This document shows, in pieces, positions 14,731 through 60,647 of a stretch of DNA of 64,000 bases (position 1 is the first letter of the stretch; each line of letters starts with the position of its first letter). The DNA is from Escherichia phage PhaxI, in sequence record JN673056. One strand, given 5' to 3'. Below the pieces are notes generated by a model. That model ran no database searches and was not told where the DNA came from. It saw only the letters and a program-made list of their open reading frames with translations. A program made the position numbers and the translations under genes.

Positions 14731-15059
14731 CTTACATGTTTTATAGGTTAAGACAGGAACGTTTAACCTTAAATTGCTATAACACCGTTGTTGCTGAAGT
14801 AAGTGTTGTGTAATTGGGGTTTGAATTTGTTTTGAAGCAAAAATAATCCTTTTCTACGCATGTTCTGAGGTGTACAGTATTTTCCTCGCCTTTATGCCTC
14901 CATGGCATTGGAATGGGACTGCCTGTCAAGGCGGTGTTACGAGCTTCAGCGAGTAGGAACGAAAAGAATAAAGGTTGAACGGAAGCAGAGCTTCCTATAA
15001 TATATTATTCGACAGATTTCAAATCCCCGCCATAAATATCACATGATTCTAATTGACTA

Positions 15060-16685
15060 ATGGGTTTCAATATGTTAGACAACTTGCGTTGGTTTTACGG
15101 GCGCGTTGAAGACGTGAATGATCCCGATCAAAACGGGCGCGTCGCAGTACGCATCTATGGGGTACAACACGAGGATACCACTCTCCTGCCTACAGAATTA
15201 TTGCCTTGGGGTAAAATGCTTATGCCAGCATCTAACGCCTCCTCGGCAGGTTTAGGCTGGTCTCCGACGGGTATCACTGTCGGCTCTGACGTCATGGGGT
15301 TTGCTTTGGATGAAGCATATCAGAACATCCGTATTGCATGGGTATGGCCAGCAGCAACACCAACAGATGGGTCAGATACAAACCCATTGGCGCTGGGTCA
15401 GGTCGTTCAATCTATAGAAAGGCAGAAGTATAATGCCGTCGAGAATGTTCCTGTTAAGATTGAGGATGAACCGCAACCGGATCCACAACCACCAGTAGAC
15501 GGATATGATCCTGAGAAGTGGATGACCGTGGCTCGTGGGGAATTGGGTGTCAAAGAATATTCTGGTAAGTTCAATAACAACCCAAGGATATTGGAATATC
15601 ATAAGACAACTTCCCTGGGGGCTTCAGAAGATGAAGTTAGTTGGTGTGCGTCGTTTGTTGGATGGGTTCTGATACAGGCCGGATATACATCAACACGTTC
15701 TGCTTTGGCTCGTTCATATTTACAATGGGGGTCTCCTCTGTCAGAACCACGTTACGGCGCTGTTGTAGTGTTCCGGCGCGGGAACAACCCGACATTCGGT
15801 CACGTTGCATTCGTTCAGAAATTTGACGCCAACTACGTTTGGTGTATCGGGGGAAACCAATCCGATTCTGTGAAGGTGAGCCGTTTTAGCCGCTCATCCG
15901 TGTTGGGTTATCGTTGGCCAGGTCCAGCAACTACAGCTTCAGCAGCTCCGGCACAACAAAACGGTAAATGGTCTGAACCTATTCCAGATCGTACCCCGAA
16001 AGTCCAAGAAACACCGCCTCCTTCTGGTCGTGTTCAGGATATTGACAATACAGGAGAGGTATCGGTTCCTTCGGCTGGGGGGTCTCGTTATCCATACAAC
16101 AATGTTATGGCTTCTCGCGCTGGGCATATTATGGAGGTCGATGACACTCCAGGCGGGGAACGTTTGCATTGGATGCACTCTTCTGGGTCTTACAAGCAAA
16201 TGCTTCCTGACGGTGATGTTGTTAATAAATCAGTCAAAGATCATTATGACCTGACGATGTTCGACAAACGTTATTATGTGGGGGGTGATCATAACCTGAC
16301 AATTGGTGGGACTGAAGTACAGCGTAAGAAAGGAGAAGTTTACCACTTACACTCTTCTAACTATTCCAATGTGGTCGCTGGAACAGCGTTGATGAAATTT
16401 TCCCAATTGGCTGAGATACAGGCACAGAACGTGTTGCGTCTCATCTGTGAAATGTTTGAAGTGTCTAACACTTTGAAGGTTCCTAAGATACTGGCAACTG
16501 AAATAATTTGTGATAAATTATCGGTCGCACAGACTATTGAAGGCAACATCAAATATGCTGAAGGCGCTGGTCGCGCCGCCTCACGTGCGGGGGCAACTCC
16601 TGTAACAACTACAGGCCCAGGTCCAATTGATATAAAACCGGAGTTAGAGGATAACGGTGGCAATTTTGGTGGTAAAGGCGCATGA
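15060..16685 (+). CDS. 5: Baseplate central spike / tail-associated lysin (gp5-like) with NlpC/P60- or CHAP-like peptidase domain
   Basis: N-terminus LRWFYGRVEDVNDPDQNGRVAVRIYGV (gp5 OB-fold-like); middle domain with Cys...His pair (SWCASFVGWV...GHVAFV); C-terminal region that may correspond to the gp5 spike. Confidence 0.75.
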   Translation: MGFNMLDNLRWFYGRVEDVNDPDQNGRVAVRIYGVQHEDTTLLPTELLPWGKMLMPASNASSAGLGWSPTGITVGSDVMGFALDEAYQNIRIAWVWPAATPTDGSDTNPLALGQVVQSIERQKYNAVENVPVKIEDEPQPDPQPPVDGYDPEKWMTVARGELGVKEYSGKFNNNPRILEYHKTTSLGASEDEVSWCASFVGWVLIQAGYTSTRSALARSYLQWGSPLSEPRYGAVVVFRRGNNPTFGHVAFVQKFDANYVWCIGGNQSDSVKVSRFSRSSVLGYRWPGPATTASAAPAQQNGKWSEPIPDRTPKVQETPPPSGRVQDIDNTGEVSVPSAGGSRYPYNNVMASRAGHIMEVDDTPGGERLHWMHSSGSYKQMLPDGDVVNKSVKDHYDLTMFDKRYYVGGDHNLTIGGTEVQRKKGEVYHLHSSNYSNVVAGTALMKFSQLAEIQAQNVLRLICEMFEVSNTLKVPKILATEIICDKLSVAQTIEGNIKYAEGAGRAASRAGATPVTTTGPGPIDIKPELEDNGGNFGGKGA

Positions 16686-24984: not shown

Positions 24985-26045
24985 ATCTTCCTCAAGTCAG
25001 AAAATCGTAAGGACGCCGACAGTCCCTGATATACGTTCTTGGCTATGATCTGAAGCAGATCACGTATCGGGATATTTCCCTTATCGGGGTGAACCATATC
25101 ATTGATATCCTTCCACGGTATTTCCGGTGGAAACAGAACGACTTTGACTCCGCTGTCTATCATCTTCTGTATACCGTCACAAACTTGTTTGTTCCTGTAT
25201 TGGTAATCGGGGATATAGATGTCTCCCTTAGCACTTAATAAGTCGGCATCGGCAGTCGCAAGACAATTGGGTAGAAACAAGCTATCAATTGGACCTTCTA
25301 CTACCAACTTTGTTTTGTTCCAAATGATGCGCTCTTCCCCGTAGATCTTAGTATCTTCGTTCTTAGGCTTGACAGTGGCATACCGTAATACCCCATCAGG
25401 AAGGTTATCGCCGAATGCGCGCCCCTGAACTATCTTCATGCGCCCGTCTTGGGTCCAGAATGGGATTACCAGCCGCTCATCTTCGGGTATCTTCTTCTGC
25501 TTCTCAACATCCGTTTCGAAACTCAGAAGATCTTGACGAAAATTCCTGCTGTAATACAACAAAGATAACGTGCTCTCCGGCATACCCCTGCCTTCAACAT
25601 AACGACGGGCGATATGATCACGGTCAAGAAGATCAAGGCGTATCATATTCCCAAGGTGCTCTTCATCCCGTTTGGCGACCTGAGAACCGATACGTGCTGT
25701 CTGGGTCAGGCGCTGTAGTGGTTTGAGTTTTTGTAACGGGCGGGAACTGGTATCCCCCATGATCCTGAATTTTTCAAGGTTGTATTCATTATACAGACGC
25801 TCGTCAAACTTCTTCAACCAGAATTCAAACGCCCAACCGCTCATTTCATTACAGTTGTGGCACTTGAAACGAAACACATCGTCATCACGATCATAAAAGA
25901 AGTGACCACGACGCTTGTTGGCACTCTTCTTAGAATCCCCACATAATGGGCAACGAAATTTGGCGACAGCGCCAACACGTTCCCAACTGAATTTATCAAG
26001 TCGGGGGGCGAGAAAATTGATGTATTGTTCGTCCAAGAATTTCAT
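24981..26045 (-). CDS. 61: DNA primase gp61
   Basis: N-terminal zinc ribbon FRCPLCGDS...FKCHNCN; TOPRIM-like VVEGPIDSLFLP; 354 aa. Confidence 0.85.
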   Translation of the reverse strand: MKFLDEQYINFLAPRLDKFSWERVGAVAKFRCPLCGDSKKSANKRRGHFFYDRDDDVFRFKCHNCNEMSGWAFEFWLKKFDERLYNEYNLEKFRIMGDTSSRPLQKLKPLQRLTQTARIGSQVAKRDEEHLGNMIRLDLLDRDHIARRYVEGRGMPESTLSLLYYSRNFRQDLLSFETDVEKQKKIPEDERLVIPFWTQDGRMKIVQGRAFGDNLPDGVLRYATVKPKNEDTKIYGEERIIWNKTKLVVEGPIDSLFLPNCLATADADLLSAKGDIYIPDYQYRNKQVCDGIQKMIDSGVKVVLFPPEIPWKDINDMVHPDKGNIPIRDLLQIIAKNVYQGLSASLRFSDLRKI

Positions 26046-26725: not shown

Positions 26726-27079
26726 TTAGGACAATTGCTTCAGTTTGTAAATCGTTTGATAGCACAAAGTTTTGATTTCATCAAGCGTATTTTGAAGATG
26801 GCTGTCGCATTGACCATAAATTCCGTTTACGTCGATAACAACACTGTTGACATACGATATAGGATCTGGGTTGTACAGTTTAATATTCTCAAACCCTGGG
26901 ACATATACACCACCCGCGCCGATATATGCCTCTGTGAAGGTATCCAGCAAGTCCTCCAGTTCCCCGTAGAACTCCCCGAGTGCCTTGTGCTTGGCATAGG
27001 ACGTTGTAACGAAGTGGAGGGCATGGGAGTGGGCTATAGCAAGCAGTCCACGGTTGATGAATATACTCGCATTGACCAT
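26726..27079 (-). CDS. Hypothetical protein (possible ferritin/Dps-like helical bundle; weak)
   Basis: Start set at MVNASIF; LLAIAHSHALHFVTTSYAKHKALGEFYGELEDLLD; the track ORF extends to 27139. Confidence 0.4.
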   Translation of the reverse strand: MVNASIFINRGLLAIAHSHALHFVTTSYAKHKALGEFYGELEDLLDTFTEAYIGAGGVYVPGFENIKLYNPDPISYVNSVVIDVNGIYGQCDSHLQNTLDEIKTLCYQTIYKLKQLS

Positions 27080-55767: not shown

Positions 55768-56163
55768 TTATTCAATTTTTGCCCGACTTGGGCGAATGGT
55801 GTATTTTGGAACCAGTTTCCACTCTGAAACTTGGTCATGTTTTACAACTTTGATCCGAGACATGTCAGCCACTTCGGTTATTTGTTCCGGATGCAAGATC
55901 TTAACCATATTCCATTGCTCCAGAAGCCGTATAATCCGATTCATACGCAGGACATCTTCACGCGTAAAGCCGTTATAGTGCCCATCTAGCATGAACAAAT
56001 GCTTGAAATGCACGATGTGATATCTGCCAAATTTATGCAGGATATGGCACGTTTGATACAAGGTGTTAGGCTCTTGACGAGTGTTAACCCCTATCCGACT
56101 CAGCGTTTCCTTGATACCCAGGAAAATCCCTGGTTTGTCTTGGTTCAATTGAACTTCAACCAT
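55768..56163 (-). CDS. regA: Translational repressor RegA
   Basis: IKETLSRIGVN...LYQTCHILHKFGRYHIVHFKHLFMLDG...EWKLVPKYTI resembles T4 RegA; start set at MVEVQLNQ (the track ORF extends to 56232). Confidence 0.85.
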   Translation of the reverse strand: MVEVQLNQDKPGIFLGIKETLSRIGVNTRQEPNTLYQTCHILHKFGRYHIVHFKHLFMLDGHYNGFTREDVLRMNRIIRLLEQWNMVKILHPEQITEVADMSRIKVVKHDQVSEWKLVPKYTIRPSRAKIE

Positions 56164-56261
56164 ACAGTCAACAATGCTGGCCTCATCGTTGACAGCTGAA
56201 AGTTTTAAGATGTCCAGCGTATTACGCGCCATGACTCATACCCCTTTAACAATTATTTGAA

Positions 56262-56684
56262 TTACTTAGCCTTGCGCGGTTTGGCTTTTTCGTTGCTGTT
56301 GGAACGTTCGACCTTCGCCTTGATTTCAGCCAGGACTTCTTTCGGCAGGAATCGAACATATTCTGAAGCCTTTTCAGGACTGATGTAATAATACTCAGAA
56401 ATCAATTTCACATCAGGATCCATAGCTCCCTTCTTAGACCACTTGCCATAGCGACGTTTTGCCGGAATGCTATGAAACGCCAGGTTCCATTGCATCCAAG
56501 GAGTAATGGCATGAAAGCGGTTCATTTGTTCAGCAACCACAAGCGTGTCTTTACTCTGGGCAAGGCCGCGCCGAGTCATGAAAGGATCAAAAGCCTTTCT
56601 GATTTCGGGGTCTTCGGTCATCAACAGATTCTCTTTGGTGCTATTCAACGCACCGAGGTAATCGAACAGTGACGGAGCGGCCAT
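56262..56684 (-). CDS. 62: Clamp-loader small subunit gp62
   Basis: PAKRRYGKWSKK resembles T4 gp62 PRGKRYGKWAK; sits between gp44 and regA. Confidence 0.65.
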   Translation of the reverse strand: MAAPSLFDYLGALNSTKENLLMTEDPEIRKAFDPFMTRRGLAQSKDTLVVAEQMNRFHAITPWMQWNLAFHSIPAKRRYGKWSKKGAMDPDVKLISEYYYISPEKASEYVRFLPKEVLAEIKAKVERSNSNEKAKPRKAK

Positions 56685-56688
56685 AATA

Positions 56689-57678
56689 TTACTTCCATTT
56701 GATGTTGAGCATGACGTTAGTCAAGAAGTAAACGCCGTGTAACCAGACGTCGCCGACGGAACGATGTTCAATCTGAGACTGACCACAGACGCATACCAGA
56801 TCAGGGATTGACTCGTTTTGAATCAAAGGAGTCTTTTCCTTGTTCTGGGGAACGCAGAAATGGAAGAAACGGGAATAAAAATCTTCAGTGATGTAGTTTT
56901 GGTTGTCGGTCACCCACTGCTTCATCCCAGCCCAATCATTGGTTTTTAGGAAATCCACCAACGCTTGGAATTCCCCTGCTTTAACCTGTGCCAGAGCGCG
57001 TTCATCGATTTTACCAAACGTGGTGGCATTATCCTGAAGAGTTCCCATAATTTTGCGATTATCTGGGAAATATGATTTCACAATGGAAGCAATTACACCA
57101 GCTTCATACGGAATGCCTTCCTCTGTCAGGATAGTTGCGCAACGACGCATGAATTGAAGTTTAACTTCATCTGCTTCCTTTTCAGACCAGATAAAATCAA
57201 TTTCACGACAGCGGGAACGCAGAGGTTCGTTAACGCGCTGTTTCGCATTAGTCGTCAGGATGAAGGAGCAGTTTTTGGAGACTTTCTCTACGATGCCTTT
57301 CAGGGATTCCTGCGCCGCCATGGAAAGTCGCTCAACTTCATCGAGGATAACGACTTTGCGGCCACCGAAAACACTGACGCCAGTTGCGTATTGAATAACA
57401 CGGTCACGGATGACATCAATGCTGTTATCCAGTGACGCATTGATCATCAACGGTTTGATACAACCGATTTCGTTGCAAACAGCCAGAGCAGAAGTAGTCT
57501 TGCCCGTACCAGGCTGAGGGGAATAGAACAGCATTGAGGGGATGTTTCCATTGCCTGATGTAACATAGCCATGGATTTTTGCACGGACGTCTGAAGGGAG
57601 GACGATCTCATCCAGATTGTCAGGGCGATATTTGTTTTCCCACGCGTATTGATCTGTGACGATAGTGATGTTAGACAT
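56689..57678 (-). CDS. 44: Clamp-loader large subunit gp44 (RFC-like AAA+ ATPase)
   Basis: Walker A PQPGTGKTT, Walker B ILDEVE, sensor SRC; 329 aa. Confidence 0.9.
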   Translation of the reverse strand: MSNITIVTDQYAWENKYRPDNLDEIVLPSDVRAKIHGYVTSGNGNIPSMLFYSPQPGTGKTTSALAVCNEIGCIKPLMINASLDNSIDVIRDRVIQYATGVSVFGGRKVVILDEVERLSMAAQESLKGIVEKVSKNCSFILTTNAKQRVNEPLRSRCREIDFIWSEKEADEVKLQFMRRCATILTEEGIPYEAGVIASIVKSYFPDNRKIMGTLQDNATTFGKIDERALAQVKAGEFQALVDFLKTNDWAGMKQWVTDNQNYITEDFYSRFFHFCVPQNKEKTPLIQNESIPDLVCVCGQSQIEHRSVGDVWLHGVYFLTNVMLNIKWK

Positions 57679-57707
57679 TGCAGCCTCTTTAGATAAAACG
57701 TTTCAAA

Positions 57708-57725
57708 GGGCGGGGAAACCCCGCC
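57708..57725 (-). promoter_or_regulatory. Intergenic stem-loop cassette (PeSL-like), copy 3
   Basis: GGGCGGGGaaaCCCCGCC followed by CTTTGAAA and the gp44 RBS; same core as copies 1 and 2. Confidence 0.5.
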
Positions 57726-57755
57726 ACCGATAATAAAGCGCTGAATCGTTATTGA

Positions 57756-58424
57756 TTAATCCAGCTGCATGCCGACGTAATAGTTGATGGTGCCGTCTGC
57801 GGATTGGAAGTTAACCAGTTGCATTTCGGCACAGGCGCGGATCACGTAGTTTCCTTCGATCATTTTCAGGTTGACCACATCAACAGGCATAGCAAAATCG
57901 CCCAGAGTTGTTTCGCCCAATTCAACAGTGTAATCGTTGGAATTATCGATAGTAGTGGTCGTGCCTACCAGACGAGTTTTACCGCCGCTGGCAACCAGAC
58001 GTACAGTTTTGTGGCCCAGAGTAGAACAGGCGCGGGTCAGCTCTTTCATTTTTTCAGGAGTGACCGTTGCTTCGAATTCTACAGACGGGAGATCGATGCT
58101 GTCTGCTGGAACGACCGTCAATTCTTTAGCGGAACGCCAGAATTGCAGTTGGGAGTTTTCACCTTTCAGCAAAATGTGGTCTTCTGACATTTCAATTTTA
58201 CCGCCTTTGAAACTCGGAAGACGCTGGATTGCCAGCAGTTTGGTGAGATCTAGAATCGGGAATTCGAACGGGAAGTCTTCGTCGATATCAGCGATAGCGA
58301 TAACTGTACTGGAATCGTTAACGGTGCGCAGCTTTTTACCAGGTGCCAGAACGATAGAGGGGCAGATGGTTTCAAAGTTAGCCAGCAGTTGTAAAGTGCG
58401 TTCGGAGAGAGTGATCTCTTGCAT
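57756..58424 (-). CDS. 45: Sliding clamp gp45
   Basis: 222 aa directly upstream of 44/62/regA (T4 synteny); size and composition fit gp45. Confidence 0.75.
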   Translation of the reverse strand: MQEITLSERTLQLLANFETICPSIVLAPGKKLRTVNDSSTVIAIADIDEDFPFEFPILDLTKLLAIQRLPSFKGGKIEMSEDHILLKGENSQLQFWRSAKELTVVPADSIDLPSVEFEATVTPEKMKELTRACSTLGHKTVRLVASGGKTRLVGTTTTIDNSNDYTVELGETTLGDFAMPVDVVNLKMIEGNYVIRACAEMQLVNFQSADGTINYYVGMQLD

Positions 58425-58761
58425 TGTTTATATCCTCAAAATATAGTGGGGTTCAAGTCATGTTTGACGCAAATTAGTATCGCGTGTTTGCAGTTATAGA
58501 ACAAGTGTTAAAATGCCCTACGCGCGATAAATAAATGCCTGACGGCATTTATAGTATTCTGTTTTAATAAAAACCTTTCTTTATCAGTCTACTCGCTTCG
58601 CTCGTGATAATACTCGTTGCTCGCAAAGCTCACAACTCGTATATTACGCACGGATTGTTCAACAAGAAAGCGATTTTTATTCAACTAGCAAAATAATTTA
58701 TTTGGTCTAAACACAGCATGAGATTATTATGTAGTTATGTTTACTAACAAGAGAGTGATAT

Positions 58762-59139
58762 ATGAAACAATTCGTGGGTTTATATGCAGTGGGGGAAGTT
58801 CAAGAATCCAACCTTTCAATGTCTTCAATGTTGGCAGAAGCACAACCGACATTGAAAGGTGTTTACTTACACAGCCTCTATCGCACTTCTAAGTTTGTTG
58901 TGACACCAATGATGGTGATTCCGTTACTGCCAGACACCAAAGGTCTGTATATCGGCATTATCCAACAAGGACAGGCGCGGGAAGTGAAAGTCATCCCGCT
59001 GATGGAATCTAATGAAGAACTGATGAGTCAGATTCTTGAGCCGGAAGTTCTACAACAATGCGTCAACACGATGGGTTGTTTGTTCGGTTCTAACAAAGAC
59101 GGCGAGGCAACCCCCGCCTATGTGAATCAAGATAAATGA
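58762..59139 (+). CDS. Hypothetical protein (plus strand)
   Basis: 125-aa ORF filling the gap between gp45 and uvsW; GAGAG RBS. Confidence 0.4.
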   Translation: MKQFVGLYAVGEVQESNLSMSSMLAEAQPTLKGVYLHSLYRTSKFVVTPMMVIPLLPDTKGLYIGIIQQGQAREVKVIPLMESNEELMSQILEPEVLQQCVNTMGCLFGSNKDGEATPAYVNQDK

Positions 59140-59141
59140 AT

Positions 59142-60647
59142 TTATTGGAGCGATACTTTCTTCATTTGTACAGGGTGTCGCTCCATAAGATAAAATTTAT
59201 ATCTCTCATGTGAATGTCTAAGGGCATGGTTGTACGAAAATCCTTTGTAACGCAAGTTGTCTACTAAATCCCAGATCTTGGCAACATCCTTTGAAGAGTG
59301 CTGGCGCATGAGACGCCCTAAAGTCTGTATGACACGGATATAGGATTTACTCGGGTGTGCCAATATCAGATGATGAAGTTTTTTGATCGACACGCCTTGC
59401 TGCATGGTTCCATATGACGCCAACAGTGTTATATCTTCACCCTCTTCCATCGCTGCCTGAATTTGTTTACGAACTTCTGTCTTAACTTCGCCGTTGATGA
59501 CAAATACGTTTTTCTTAACGGCTGAAAGCATTTCATAAACAATCATCATATGGGCGTCAATGCGTTCGAACATGACGGCCACGTTACCTTTCAAAGACAA
59601 TGCCATTCTGGCTATTAACTCGTTTCGACGTTCATTCGCTATGAGGAATTCTATTTCCTTTTGATACTCAGCACCATGCATTTCTATACAATCCGCCATG
59701 GGATGTATGACTTCAATCATGTTGACATGGATATCTGTGGCATAACCAAGATTGATCAAATCACGCGCTGTAATAATTTTATGATATGCACCAAAGTGAG
59801 CAACGACTTGTAACCCTGCGACCTTTGTATTCGCCAGAGTTCCAGTTACACCCAAACGTTGGTCAGCGTTAATACAGTTGTTCAGGATATAAGATAGCTT
59901 TTCAGATTTAGATGTGTGTACTTCGTCGACAACAATATCCCCAAATTGATGGAACCATTCTTTGGGCTGATTCTGAATTCCCTGCCAAGTGGAAATGACT
60001 ATGGGCTTGAATATATCCTTTGTTGCACCTTCACATATCATCTGGACATTCATCATCGGATTCCAATCTGTCCCGTGGCTGTATTCCTCAAAGTTGTCAT
60101 ACAACTGAGTCACCAAGTGAATGGAAGGTACAACGATCAACGTCTTGAGATTGCTTTCCAGTGCCTCTCTGCGTTGCCTGTAGTAACGCGCCATGATGTA
60201 CAAAATAAACGATTTACCCGCGCTCGTAGCCGCTTCTAGCACGCATCTGGATTGGCGTATTGCTGTGGCCACTGAGTCGAATTGATAGTCACGCACTGTT
60301 GCGATTTGGTATTGCTTGTTTTCATCACGGTAAACAGCGTCAGGAATGATAAATGTATGTATCTCTTCGTCTGGTATATCTTGGATATATTTTAAGGCGG
60401 GATCTAATTTGATGGTGTAACCATTCATCTTACAGAACTTAAACACCTCAAACAACAGACCGATGTCTATAAGGCCAGAACTCTTTGTGAACAAGCGTAC
60501 CACGCCGTCCCATTTACTGAATGGATTTGGTTGGAAATTAGGATCTTCAAATTTGAAGTAATCGTTGAGTTCTTCACGGATATAGTCCTCGGCAAGGATC
60601 CGCATTCTAACTTCGTTCACTTTGACTATTTGGATCTCAGACATCAC
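59142..60647 (-). CDS. uvsW: UvsW SF2 DNA helicase
   Basis: Walker A AATSAGKS, Walker B VVDEVH, helicase C-terminal motifs; 501 aa. Confidence 0.85.
   Translation of the reverse strand: MMSEIQIVKVNEVRMRILAEDYIREELNDYFKFEDPNFQPNPFSKWDGVVRLFTKSSGLIDIGLLFEVFKFCKMNGYTIKLDPALKYIQDIPDEEIHTFIIPDAVYRDENKQYQIATVRDYQFDSVATAIRQSRCVLEAATSAGKSFILYIMARYYRQRREALESNLKTLIVVPSIHLVTQLYDNFEEYSHGTDWNPMMNVQMICEGATKDIFKPIVISTWQGIQNQPKEWFHQFGDIVVDEVHTSKSEKLSYILNNCINADQRLGVTGTLANTKVAGLQVVAHFGAYHKIITARDLINLGYATDIHVNMIEVIHPMADCIEMHGAEYQKEIEFLIANERRNELIARMALSLKGNVAVMFERIDAHMMIVYEMLSAVKKNVFVINGEVKTEVRKQIQAAMEEGEDITLLASYGTMQQGVSIKKLHHLILAHPSKSYIRVIQTLGRLMRQHSSKDVAKIWDLVDNLRYKGFSYNHALRHSHERYKFYLMERHPVQMKKVSLQ

Follow-up and report, generated by a model that had tools for sequence, protein, structure and literature searches.

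The sliding-clamp gene gp45 of Escherichia phage PhaxI (JN673056, analysed here as a window of 64,000 nucleotides [nt]) is separated from a divergent open reading frame of 125 amino acids (125-aa ORF) by an intergenic gap of 337 bp (58425–58761). The gap is conserved across genera, bears sigma70-type promoter signatures facing both genes, and contains two hairpins, HP1 and HP2, which are constrained by base pairing and recur elsewhere in the genome. We favour the explanation that the gap is a compound, family-conserved control region combining divergent promoters with a structured hairpin module, and we judge the chances of this being right to be evenly balanced. Judging from sequence, the region appears to be real and functional, partly ordinary, as a divergent promoter region, and partly new, as a family of hairpin elements that has not been described. 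An earlier note on this DNA had pointed to an AT-rich divergent gap next to gp45 with a palindrome and three ACTCG(C/T)T-like copies, had suggested a multi-promoter control region or an origin-like element, and had drawn an analogy with T4. The AT-rich gap was confirmed, with a GC content of 28–41% in 100-nt windows vs 42–55% in the flanks.

Conservation of the gap

Alignment over the full length of the gap was obtained in 271 phage records (73–100% identity), which span Kuttervirus, Agtrevirus, Limestonevirus, Taipeivirus, and unclassified Aglimvirinae. Short gaps elsewhere in these genomes are often 80–97% identical between genera, so the identity of the gap is not exceptional in itself and it is the internal pattern that is informative. 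In an 11-genome alignment, 70–80% of the columns were invariant at 58410–58470 and 58590–58680, compared with ~60% in the gp45 coding DNA and 10–30% in the 125-aa ORF. The three ACTCG copies are present as described (ACTCGCT at 58591–58597, ACTCGTT at 58612–58618, and ACTCGTA at 58635–58641). Within the single sequence the repeat is statistically weak, and extended forms of the motif are no more frequent in the window than expected by chance; elsewhere in the window, ACTCG-type motifs and TTGTTCAACAAG likewise occurred at chance level or gave a weak signal. The significance of the repeat therefore comes from comparison with other genomes. This comparison with related phages, which the earlier note had proposed, showed that the enterobacterial genera of the family retain all three copies as well as the position of the hairpin, which is not given by chance.

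Divergent sigma70-type promoters

We scanned 24 distinct sequences with a sigma70 position weight matrix and mapped the sites onto the alignment. Three promoters, P45, P1, and P2, were positionally conserved in all 24 sequences (7.5–9.8 bits, hexamers near TTGACA/TATAAT at 16–18 nt), which supports the idea of a multi-promoter control region. P45 (58476–58504, minus strand) faces gp45 and consists of a –35 hexamer TTGTTC (58504→58499), a 17-nt spacer, and a –10 hexamer GATACT (58481→58476). P1 (58617–58645; TTGCTC at 58617–58622, 17/18-nt spacer, TATATT at 58640–58645) and P2 (58702–58730; TTGGTC at 58702–58707, 17-nt spacer, TATTAT at 58725–58730) lie on the plus strand and face the 125-aa ORF. 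P1 is the top-scoring conserved promoter (mean 9.8 bits), and its –10 hexamer is TATAAT or TATAGT in other genera; that of P2 reads TA(T/A)TAT across the sequences.

The hexamers of P45 and P2 are invariant together with their flanks. The spacer of P45 has a genus-specific sequence at a constant length of 17 nt, and that of P2 varies in its middle at a fixed length. Invariant hexamers around a free spacer of fixed length are the classic footprint of a working promoter, which is how we read P45 and P2 on sequence grounds. The spacer of P1 is unusually invariant because it overlaps HP1. In relatives, the annotation places a terminator between gp45 and gp44, so that gp45 needs its own promoter, and in the distant relatives K356 and 1.255.O a promoter TTGGTC-17-TATAAT/TATAGT faces gp45. 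In the genome papers on ViI-like phages, the early and middle promoters and the late consensus of the family were left unidentified and no promoter was predicted at this gap (PMC3184105, PMC3121705), while divergence points were stated to have to hold one promoter per direction (PMC3184105). The divergent promoter layer is fairly secure and the most secure part of the favoured explanation, the firing of the promoters being predicted from their signatures.

Two hairpins with conserved pairing

The earlier note had listed the ACTCG repeats as spaced motif copies, which could be read as binding sites or iterons. Instead, all three copies read CGAGU on the minus strand, which is the sense strand of gp45, and pair mutually, forming the arms of two conserved hairpins from a family of elements with several copies. 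An iteron array, that is, at least three direct repeats of ~17–22 bp, was not found in the gap, where the repeat is limited to the 5–7-nt ACTCG core. HP2 (58591–58605, minus strand; 5'-ACGAGC-GAA-GCGAGU-3', or ACGAGC-loop-GCGAGUAG) contains the first copy and is built of an A-U pair, a C-G pair, tandem G.A/A.G, a G-C pair, a C-G pair, and a triloop. HP1 (58610–58642, minus strand; 5'-AUAC-GA-GUUGU-GA-GC-UUU-GC-GA-GCAAC-GA-GUAU-3') contains the second and third copies and forms 11 pairs. All three internal loops of the two hairpins are tandem G.A/A.G.

Across 15 pairs in 11 distinct variants, 165 of 165 cells are standard pairs, vs 16–47% when the 3' partner is slid by 1–3 columns. Two pairs, one in HP1 and one in HP2, switch from C-G to U-A on both sides (that of HP2 in Aglimvirinae), and none of 500 shuffles reached the observed covariation score. 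A further change in HP1, from U.G to U-A, is tolerated on the minus strand only. The remaining differences are confined to the loops, to the linker between HP1 and HP2 (0–5-nt indels), and to positions outside the stems; the loop of HP1 is UUU or GUUA, its 1-nt indel being confined to the loop, and those of HP2 are GAA, GUA, and AAA. The minus-strand fold of 58522–58650 has a z score of –2.75.

These patterns bear on two other explanations. HP1, HP2, the central palindrome described below, and TTGTTCAACAA could be double-stranded operators, imperfect palindromes bound by a phage-encoded dimeric regulator of the divergent promoters and of the two other gaps that carry copies. Two-sided symmetric changes are indistinguishable from compensatory pairs, HP1 spans the –35 to the –10 of P1, which is a classic operator position, changes common to the copies in one genome fit a co-evolving protein, and the block at 58655–58678 is invariant without RNA structure. 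We nevertheless regard operators as quite unlikely, because the arms are systematically non-palindromic at TC/TC (GA.GA) in all three internal loops and U.G, the majority state, would count as a mismatch in a palindrome. The centre of HP1 is 3 or 4 nt and the loops of HP2 are 3, 4, or 18 nt, so that operator half-sites would move apart.

The gap could also be an ordinary promoter gap in which slow divergence and AT-rich promoter DNA produced the palindrome and repeats as by-products. The many short gaps with 80–97% identity between genera and the abundance of promoter-like hexamers in AT-rich DNA agree with this. It is very improbable in our judgement and was already disfavoured, given the compensatory changes, the restriction of indels to loops, the second and third copies with their 14-nt identical stem and different loops, and the persistence of the core in relatives with a gp45 of only 31–37% identity.

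The central palindrome

The palindrome of the earlier note proved real and slightly larger than the string claimed (AAATGCCTGACGGCATTT, 58533–58550): it covers 58531–58552 as ATAAATGCC-TGAC-GGCATTTAT (9+4+9), with perfect 9-bp arms. ATAAATA at 58527–58533 on the plus strand overlaps the plus-strand arm, and CTATAAATG on the minus strand (58554→58546) overlaps the other, so that a late-promoter-like ATAAAT(A/G) is present on both strands. ATAAATA has 5 of its 11 copies in the window in non-coding DNA, which makes up 9% of the window, and precedes two baseplate genes by 28–35 nt. The octamer of T4 late promoters, TATAAATA, is not enriched (2 in the window vs 1.78 expected).

The palindrome region is the least sequence-conserved part of the gap. 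Its arms are kept from Kuttervirus to Aglimvirinae, but the loop shortens from 4 to 3 nt, and in Taipeivirus another AT-rich palindrome takes its place. What is conserved is therefore a hairpin or palindrome at this position and not a sequence. A terminator scan flagged it on the plus strand only; 3 of its 9 pairs are G-C, and the minus-strand tail is AUUUAUUUAU. Its place in the module, after HP2 and an A-rich spacer, is that of the hairpin GGAAGC-AGA-GCTTCC in the gap before gp5, one pair of which covaries in Taipeivirus.

Copies in other gaps and in distant relatives

The pattern CGAGC-N3-5-GCGAG occurs twice in the window vs 0.19 expected. The paralogue of HP2, ACGAGC-TTCA-GCGAGTAG (14939–14956, plus strand), lies in a 500-nt gap between a baseplate-hub gene and gp5 (15060–16685), within a larger conserved multi-hairpin element (~14866–15012, plus strand). 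This element holds GCCUCCAUGGC, GGAAUGGGAC, a hairpin ACUGCC..GGCGGU with one compensatory pair in Taipeivirus, the HP2 copy, and the hairpin GGAAGC-AGA-GCUUCC. The HP2 copy reads AUGAGC-GAA-GCGAAUAGG in phage Ag3 and ACGAGC-AAC-GCGAGUUGA in a Taipeivirus; in both, it matches the copy in the gp45 gap of the same genome in the lineage-specific states of stem and flank and differs in the loop.

A third element was found outside the window in a divergent gap of Salmonella phage BRM 13313 (ON169962.1 76780–76925, plus strand, gap 76619–76983; 26780–26925 of our record L206) and in Aglimvirinae. It combines a copy of HP1 in the U-A/GUUA state with an HP2 that has an 18-nt apical insertion, has two middle hairpins in common with the gp5-gap element, and folds as a multi-helix junction closed by an outer stem (z = –3.3). 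In the second and third copies, 14 nt of stem are identical and the loops differ. Both are followed by a late-like ATAAATA or TAAATAT: CATAAATA stands after the gp5-gap element, 28 nt before the gp5 start, and CTAAATAT after the third-gap element, ~45 nt before the downstream start codon. In the gp45, gp5, and third gaps alike, every copy is on the sense strand of its downstream gene. A covariance model of HP1 plus HP2 gave a single copy per searched region and missed the HP2-only paralogue because HP1 dominated the model. A scan of IMG/VR for ACGAGC-N3-5-GCGAGTAG was swamped by chance matches, yet it revealed the third-gap copies.

Distant relatives (Vibrio and other Ackermannviridae, gp45 31–37% identical) also have a gap of 350–460 nt upstream of gp45 and lack the 125-aa ORF (our records L048 2144–2500, L050 2155–2494, L049 2014–2473, and L077 1016–1452). 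These gaps contain perfect palindromes (AATAAGAGCTCTTATT), near-pure A/T stretches, and triloop hairpins. Two of these relatives retain the core GA-GC-loop-GC-GA: in Kuja, UAUAG-GA-GC-GGA-GC-GA-CUAUA sits atop a 23-bp hairpin followed by U6 (z = –9.6), and in L077, GGU-GA-GC-GCA-GC-GA-ACC lies ~200 nt upstream of gp45. In a profile scan of IMG/VR, the range from 81% down to 36% identity contained no relatives, and the covariation could not be deepened for that reason; an exact 15-mer scan of the same database gave nothing beyond known genomes and chance matches, and a metagenome scan with gp45 gave no match.

The distribution of the copies is relevant to the suggestion of an origin of replication, either like T4 oriF/oriG, with P1/P2 reading into an AT-rich unwinding element, or with the minus-strand hairpins as priming signals of the G4 type or of the RSF1010 ssiA type. 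The gap is the largest in ~49 kb and lies among replication and recombination genes, its tandem promoters are followed by DNA of 28% GC, the long gap upstream of gp45 persists in Vibrio relatives without the ORF, and the orientation is flipped in Kuja. DNA mini-hairpin sequences of the type GCGAAGC, GCGTTAGC, and CCGAAGG have been reported at the priming sites of phages G4/St-1 and in RSF1010 ssiA (PMC13037366). Of these, GCGAAGC is part of HP2, and the Aglimvirinae versions of HP1 and of the central hairpin include GCGTTAGC and CCGAAGG, respectively; the loops obey the DNA rule GNA/GNNA, not the RNA rule GNRA. However, the G4-type ssi motifs (GCGNAGC or GCGNNAGC), though present in the hairpins, are not enriched in the window, where GCGNAGC has 16 copies vs ~31 expected, and GAA and GAAA loops are common in the RNA terminators of the family too. 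GC skew has no inflection at the locus and is uninformative as an origin signal, and no DnaA-box or iteron array was found. The same hairpins precede gp5 and another gene, the latter beside large unannotated ORFs, and are always on the sense strand, which fits transcription better than replication. We consider an origin unlikely.

The module might also be a free-standing small RNA gene on the minus strand, ~115 nt long and made up of HP1, HP2, the A-rich stretch, and the terminal hairpin, with paralogues in the two other gaps, or a catalytic RNA domain. The order of hairpin, A-rich spacer, and terminal hairpin resembles bacterial small RNAs (sRNAs), a weak promoter-like TTTCTT-17-TAATAT is conserved on the minus strand in 24/24 sequences, the third-gap element forms the closed junction described above, and Ackermannviridae encode an active ribozyme like that of hepatitis delta virus (HDV) (PMC13635239). 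Yet the –35 TTTCTT matches at 2 of 6 positions and would place the start inside HP1, the terminal hairpins have no proper U-tract, and no ribozyme or sRNA family matched. In Rfam (HDV-like, twister, and hammerhead ribozymes, sRNAs), nothing exceeded chance in the gp45 gap, the gp5 gap, the third gap, or the whole window. Such a gene or domain is decidedly unlikely. An HDV-like fold was also tried for the paralogous elements, prompted by GGAAUGGGAC and CCUCGC, and was rejected: the manual layout fails, and the descriptor is non-specific (448 matches).

Separately, a compact HDV-like candidate was seen in BRM 13313 (ON169962.1 ~74987–75040, minus strand; L206 ~24987–25040), in an unannotated ~2.4-kb stretch next to the tRNA cluster. 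Its P1 is perfectly paired over 7 bp (GGCGGGA/UCCCGCC), its P3 is GAU/AUC, and GAGCGGAGCG falls within its P4. The candidate is possibly the HDV ribozyme of Ackermannviridae that was solved in PMC13635239, a lead only, given the non-specific descriptor.

A model of the control region

In the compound control region that we favour, P45 would drive the clamp gene leftward via a conserved ~45-nt leader, and P1 and P2 in tandem would drive the 125-aa ORF rightward. The ATAAAT(A/G) motifs on both palindrome arms may add late expression. The gp45-sense strand would carry the module in the order HP1, HP2, A-rich spacer, and central hairpin, with a hairpin core of Py-GA-GC-loop-GC-GA-Pu. Leftward transcripts from the uvsY–exonuclease–uvsW unit would enter this module, running antisense through the 125-aa ORF; uvsW and the ORF abut, with no space for a terminator between them, so read-through of this kind appears unavoidable. 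As RNA, the module may act as a protein-recognised signal for processing, stability, or termination/antitermination that separates or times clamp expression, with gp45 then re-initiated from P45. We favour a role at the RNA level because the copies are strand-specific to the downstream gene, because the Kuja motif caps a terminator-type hairpin, and because of the leftward read-through. That the copies of one genome have changes of stem and flank in common while their loops are free suggests a reader that they share and that co-evolves with them.

Several observations weigh against this model. The short HP1–HP2 piece alone folds no better than shuffles (z = –0.48), 12 of the 15 pairs never vary, and the covariation amounts to two or three independent events, which symmetric changes in a palindromic protein-binding site would mimic. 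P1 coincides exactly with HP1, so the two constraints are inseparable, and GATACT, the –10 hexamer of P45, is imperfect. On the minus strand the central hairpin does not qualify as a canonical terminator, and the analogous gp5-gap hairpin was not flagged. In Kuja, it is the antisense strand relative to gp45 that bears the motif. The literature searched yielded no transcript mapping for the family.

A bolder proposal is that HP1/HP2 represent a new class of phage cis-acting nucleic-acid signal, which each Kuttervirus genome would carry in three copies and which Vibrio Ackermannviridae would have kept. Through it, a co-evolving phage factor would time the clamp and baseplate genes (e.g., by processive antitermination or RNA processing), or the signal would mark initiation or clamp-loading sites on DNA. 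We think this doubtful; if true, it would be the first handle on the early-to-late regulatory logic of the family. The clamp protein of T4-type phages links replication with late transcription. Biocontrol of Salmonella and E. coli O157 makes wide use of ViI-like phages (Kuttervirus and relatives), and the analysis offers three conservation-backed promoter candidates for their clamp gene and its neighbour, as well as a small family of hairpin elements before gp45, gp5, and a third gene that is described in no database.

Comparison with known systems

The region upstream of T4 gene 45 has middle and late promoters; gp45, gp33, and gp55 serve late transcription, and RegA controls translation of gene 45. 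Here too, a 45-44-62-regA cluster begins with the clamp gene, which is served by a promoter region of its own, followed by a terminator, and preceded by a late-type A/T-rich –10-like motif; homologues of gp55 and regA are present. We know of no T4 counterpart of the hairpin module. The T4 analogy of the earlier note fails in detail: the phage belongs to the Ackermannviridae, its upstream gene is divergent where T4 has a co-oriented rpbA gene, TATAAATA occurs no more often than expected by chance, the early/middle promoter is plain sigma70-like with no TGCTT (MotA) box readable at –30 in the gap sequence, and the family is reported to lack MotA/AsiA (PMC3184105). Neither the T4-based expectations nor the iteron/origin idea gained support from whatever could be tested.

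The RNA hairpins of lambda nut (boxB) and HK022 put lie upstream of terminators and make RNA polymerase termination-resistant, and N proteins co-vary with their boxB sites. The elements found here are similar in that sense-strand hairpins stand upstream of a further hairpin and a regulated gene, occur in several copies per genome, and have lineage-specific stem and flank changes common to the copies in one genome. The resemblance is one of layout only, as there is no sequence similarity, boxA, identified N-like protein, or downstream canonical terminator.

With T4 oriF/oriG and the primary origin of T7 the region has in common tandem promoters, AT-rich downstream DNA, and neighbouring replication genes, and with the G4-type and RSF1010 ssi sites the occurrence of GCGAAGC, GCGTTAGC, and CCGAAGG, a motif that is not enriched. 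In contrast to these origins, the hairpins are upstream of P1/P2, not downstream, and occur also before gp5 and in the third gap. The PeSL cassettes of T4-type phages (Arbiol et al. 2010) reportedly combine an early promoter with a stem-loop of the terminator type, lie in hyperplastic regions, and mediate gene shuffling. Repeated intergenic cassettes of stem-loops and promoters are seen here as well, but these hairpins have a fixed core with G.A pairs and precede conserved core genes.

Other features of the gap

The 5' leader and translation-initiation region of gp45 (58425–58470, minus strand) has ~80% invariant columns and contains a GAGGA Shine-Dalgarno sequence, ACUAUAUUUU, and a small GUCA/UGAC hairpin. 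A RegA operator in this leader is possible, the regA gene being in the same cluster. A plus-strand promoter-like TTGCAT (58419–58424)-17-TATAGT (58442–58447) overlaps this block in 24/24 sequences, and the plus-strand RNA structure of the block is weak (–5.9 kcal/mol). The A/T-rich spacer between HP2 and the central hairpin (58553–58590) is variable and carries indels. In YX22-type phages it has a 19-bp tandem duplication (CTTTATTAAAGATAATAAC) adjoining the central hairpin (~1645–1666 of L007, which is YX22; also in L017), so that the spacer tolerates length change.

On the other side of the hairpins lies the invariant block TTGTTCAACAAGAAAG..TTTTTA (58655–58678), which includes the 5-1-5 palindrome TTGTTCAACAA; this block and the ORF leader gave 0 conserved plus-strand RNA pairs, and the block has no convincing promoter. 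ORFs of 30–31 aa inside the gap are annotated in a few records; their frame is broken by 1- and 5-nt indels, and the start codon is lost in other genera. The gap has no similarity to E. coli genomes. The genome-reduced mutant selz_4t3 (L051, OL964738.1 3832–10158), which lost ~13% of its genome, keeps the gap and the 125-aa ORF, weak evidence that they are not easily dispensable.

Gene neighbourhood

The source phage is a Kuttervirus (Ackermannviridae, ViI/CBA120-like), and 57700–59200 is 99.8% identical to BRM 13313. The leftward target, gp45 (57756–58424, minus strand, 222 aa), is annotated as a DNA polymerase processivity factor in relatives; its amino-acid identity is 82–91% among enterobacterial genera and falls to 32–37% against Vibrio Ackermannviridae. 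It is followed by gp44 (56689–57678), gp62 (56262–56684), and regA (55768–56232), all on the minus strand. Beyond the 125-aa ORF, the minus strand carries the gene for a UvsW-type helicase (59142–60647) and then those for an exonuclease and UvsY. The 125-aa ORF is the only exception to this orientation among the neighbouring genes. In the syntenic 49 kb of phage Ag3, nearly all genes are on one strand with gaps of <200 nt, and the largest gap is this one, with 340 nt.

The rightward target, the 125-aa ORF (phrog_4255; 58762–59139, plus strand), is fast-evolving, with 36–38% protein identity between genera around an invariant N-terminus (MKQFVGLYAVG) and C-terminus (GEATPAYVNQD). It belongs to no Pfam family, and its AlphaFold2 model (pLDDT 77.7) has no fold match in PDB. 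Vibrio relatives lack it and keep the long gap. Some records mislabel it as a 'clamp loader subunit', in Det7 through an apparent one-gene label shift. The Aglimvirinae versions contain SLDKLFG, which we take to resemble the clamp-binding tail of T4 polymerase.

Elsewhere in the window, TTCAATAA, which is absent from the gp45 gap, is over-represented, with 14 copies vs 4.85 expected, a number that none of 100 shuffles reached. Several of its sites (e.g., minus-strand 53197, 30542, and 24674) are 6–12 nt upstream of a –10-like hexamer, and TTCAATAA could be a phage-specific '–30 box' promoter class.

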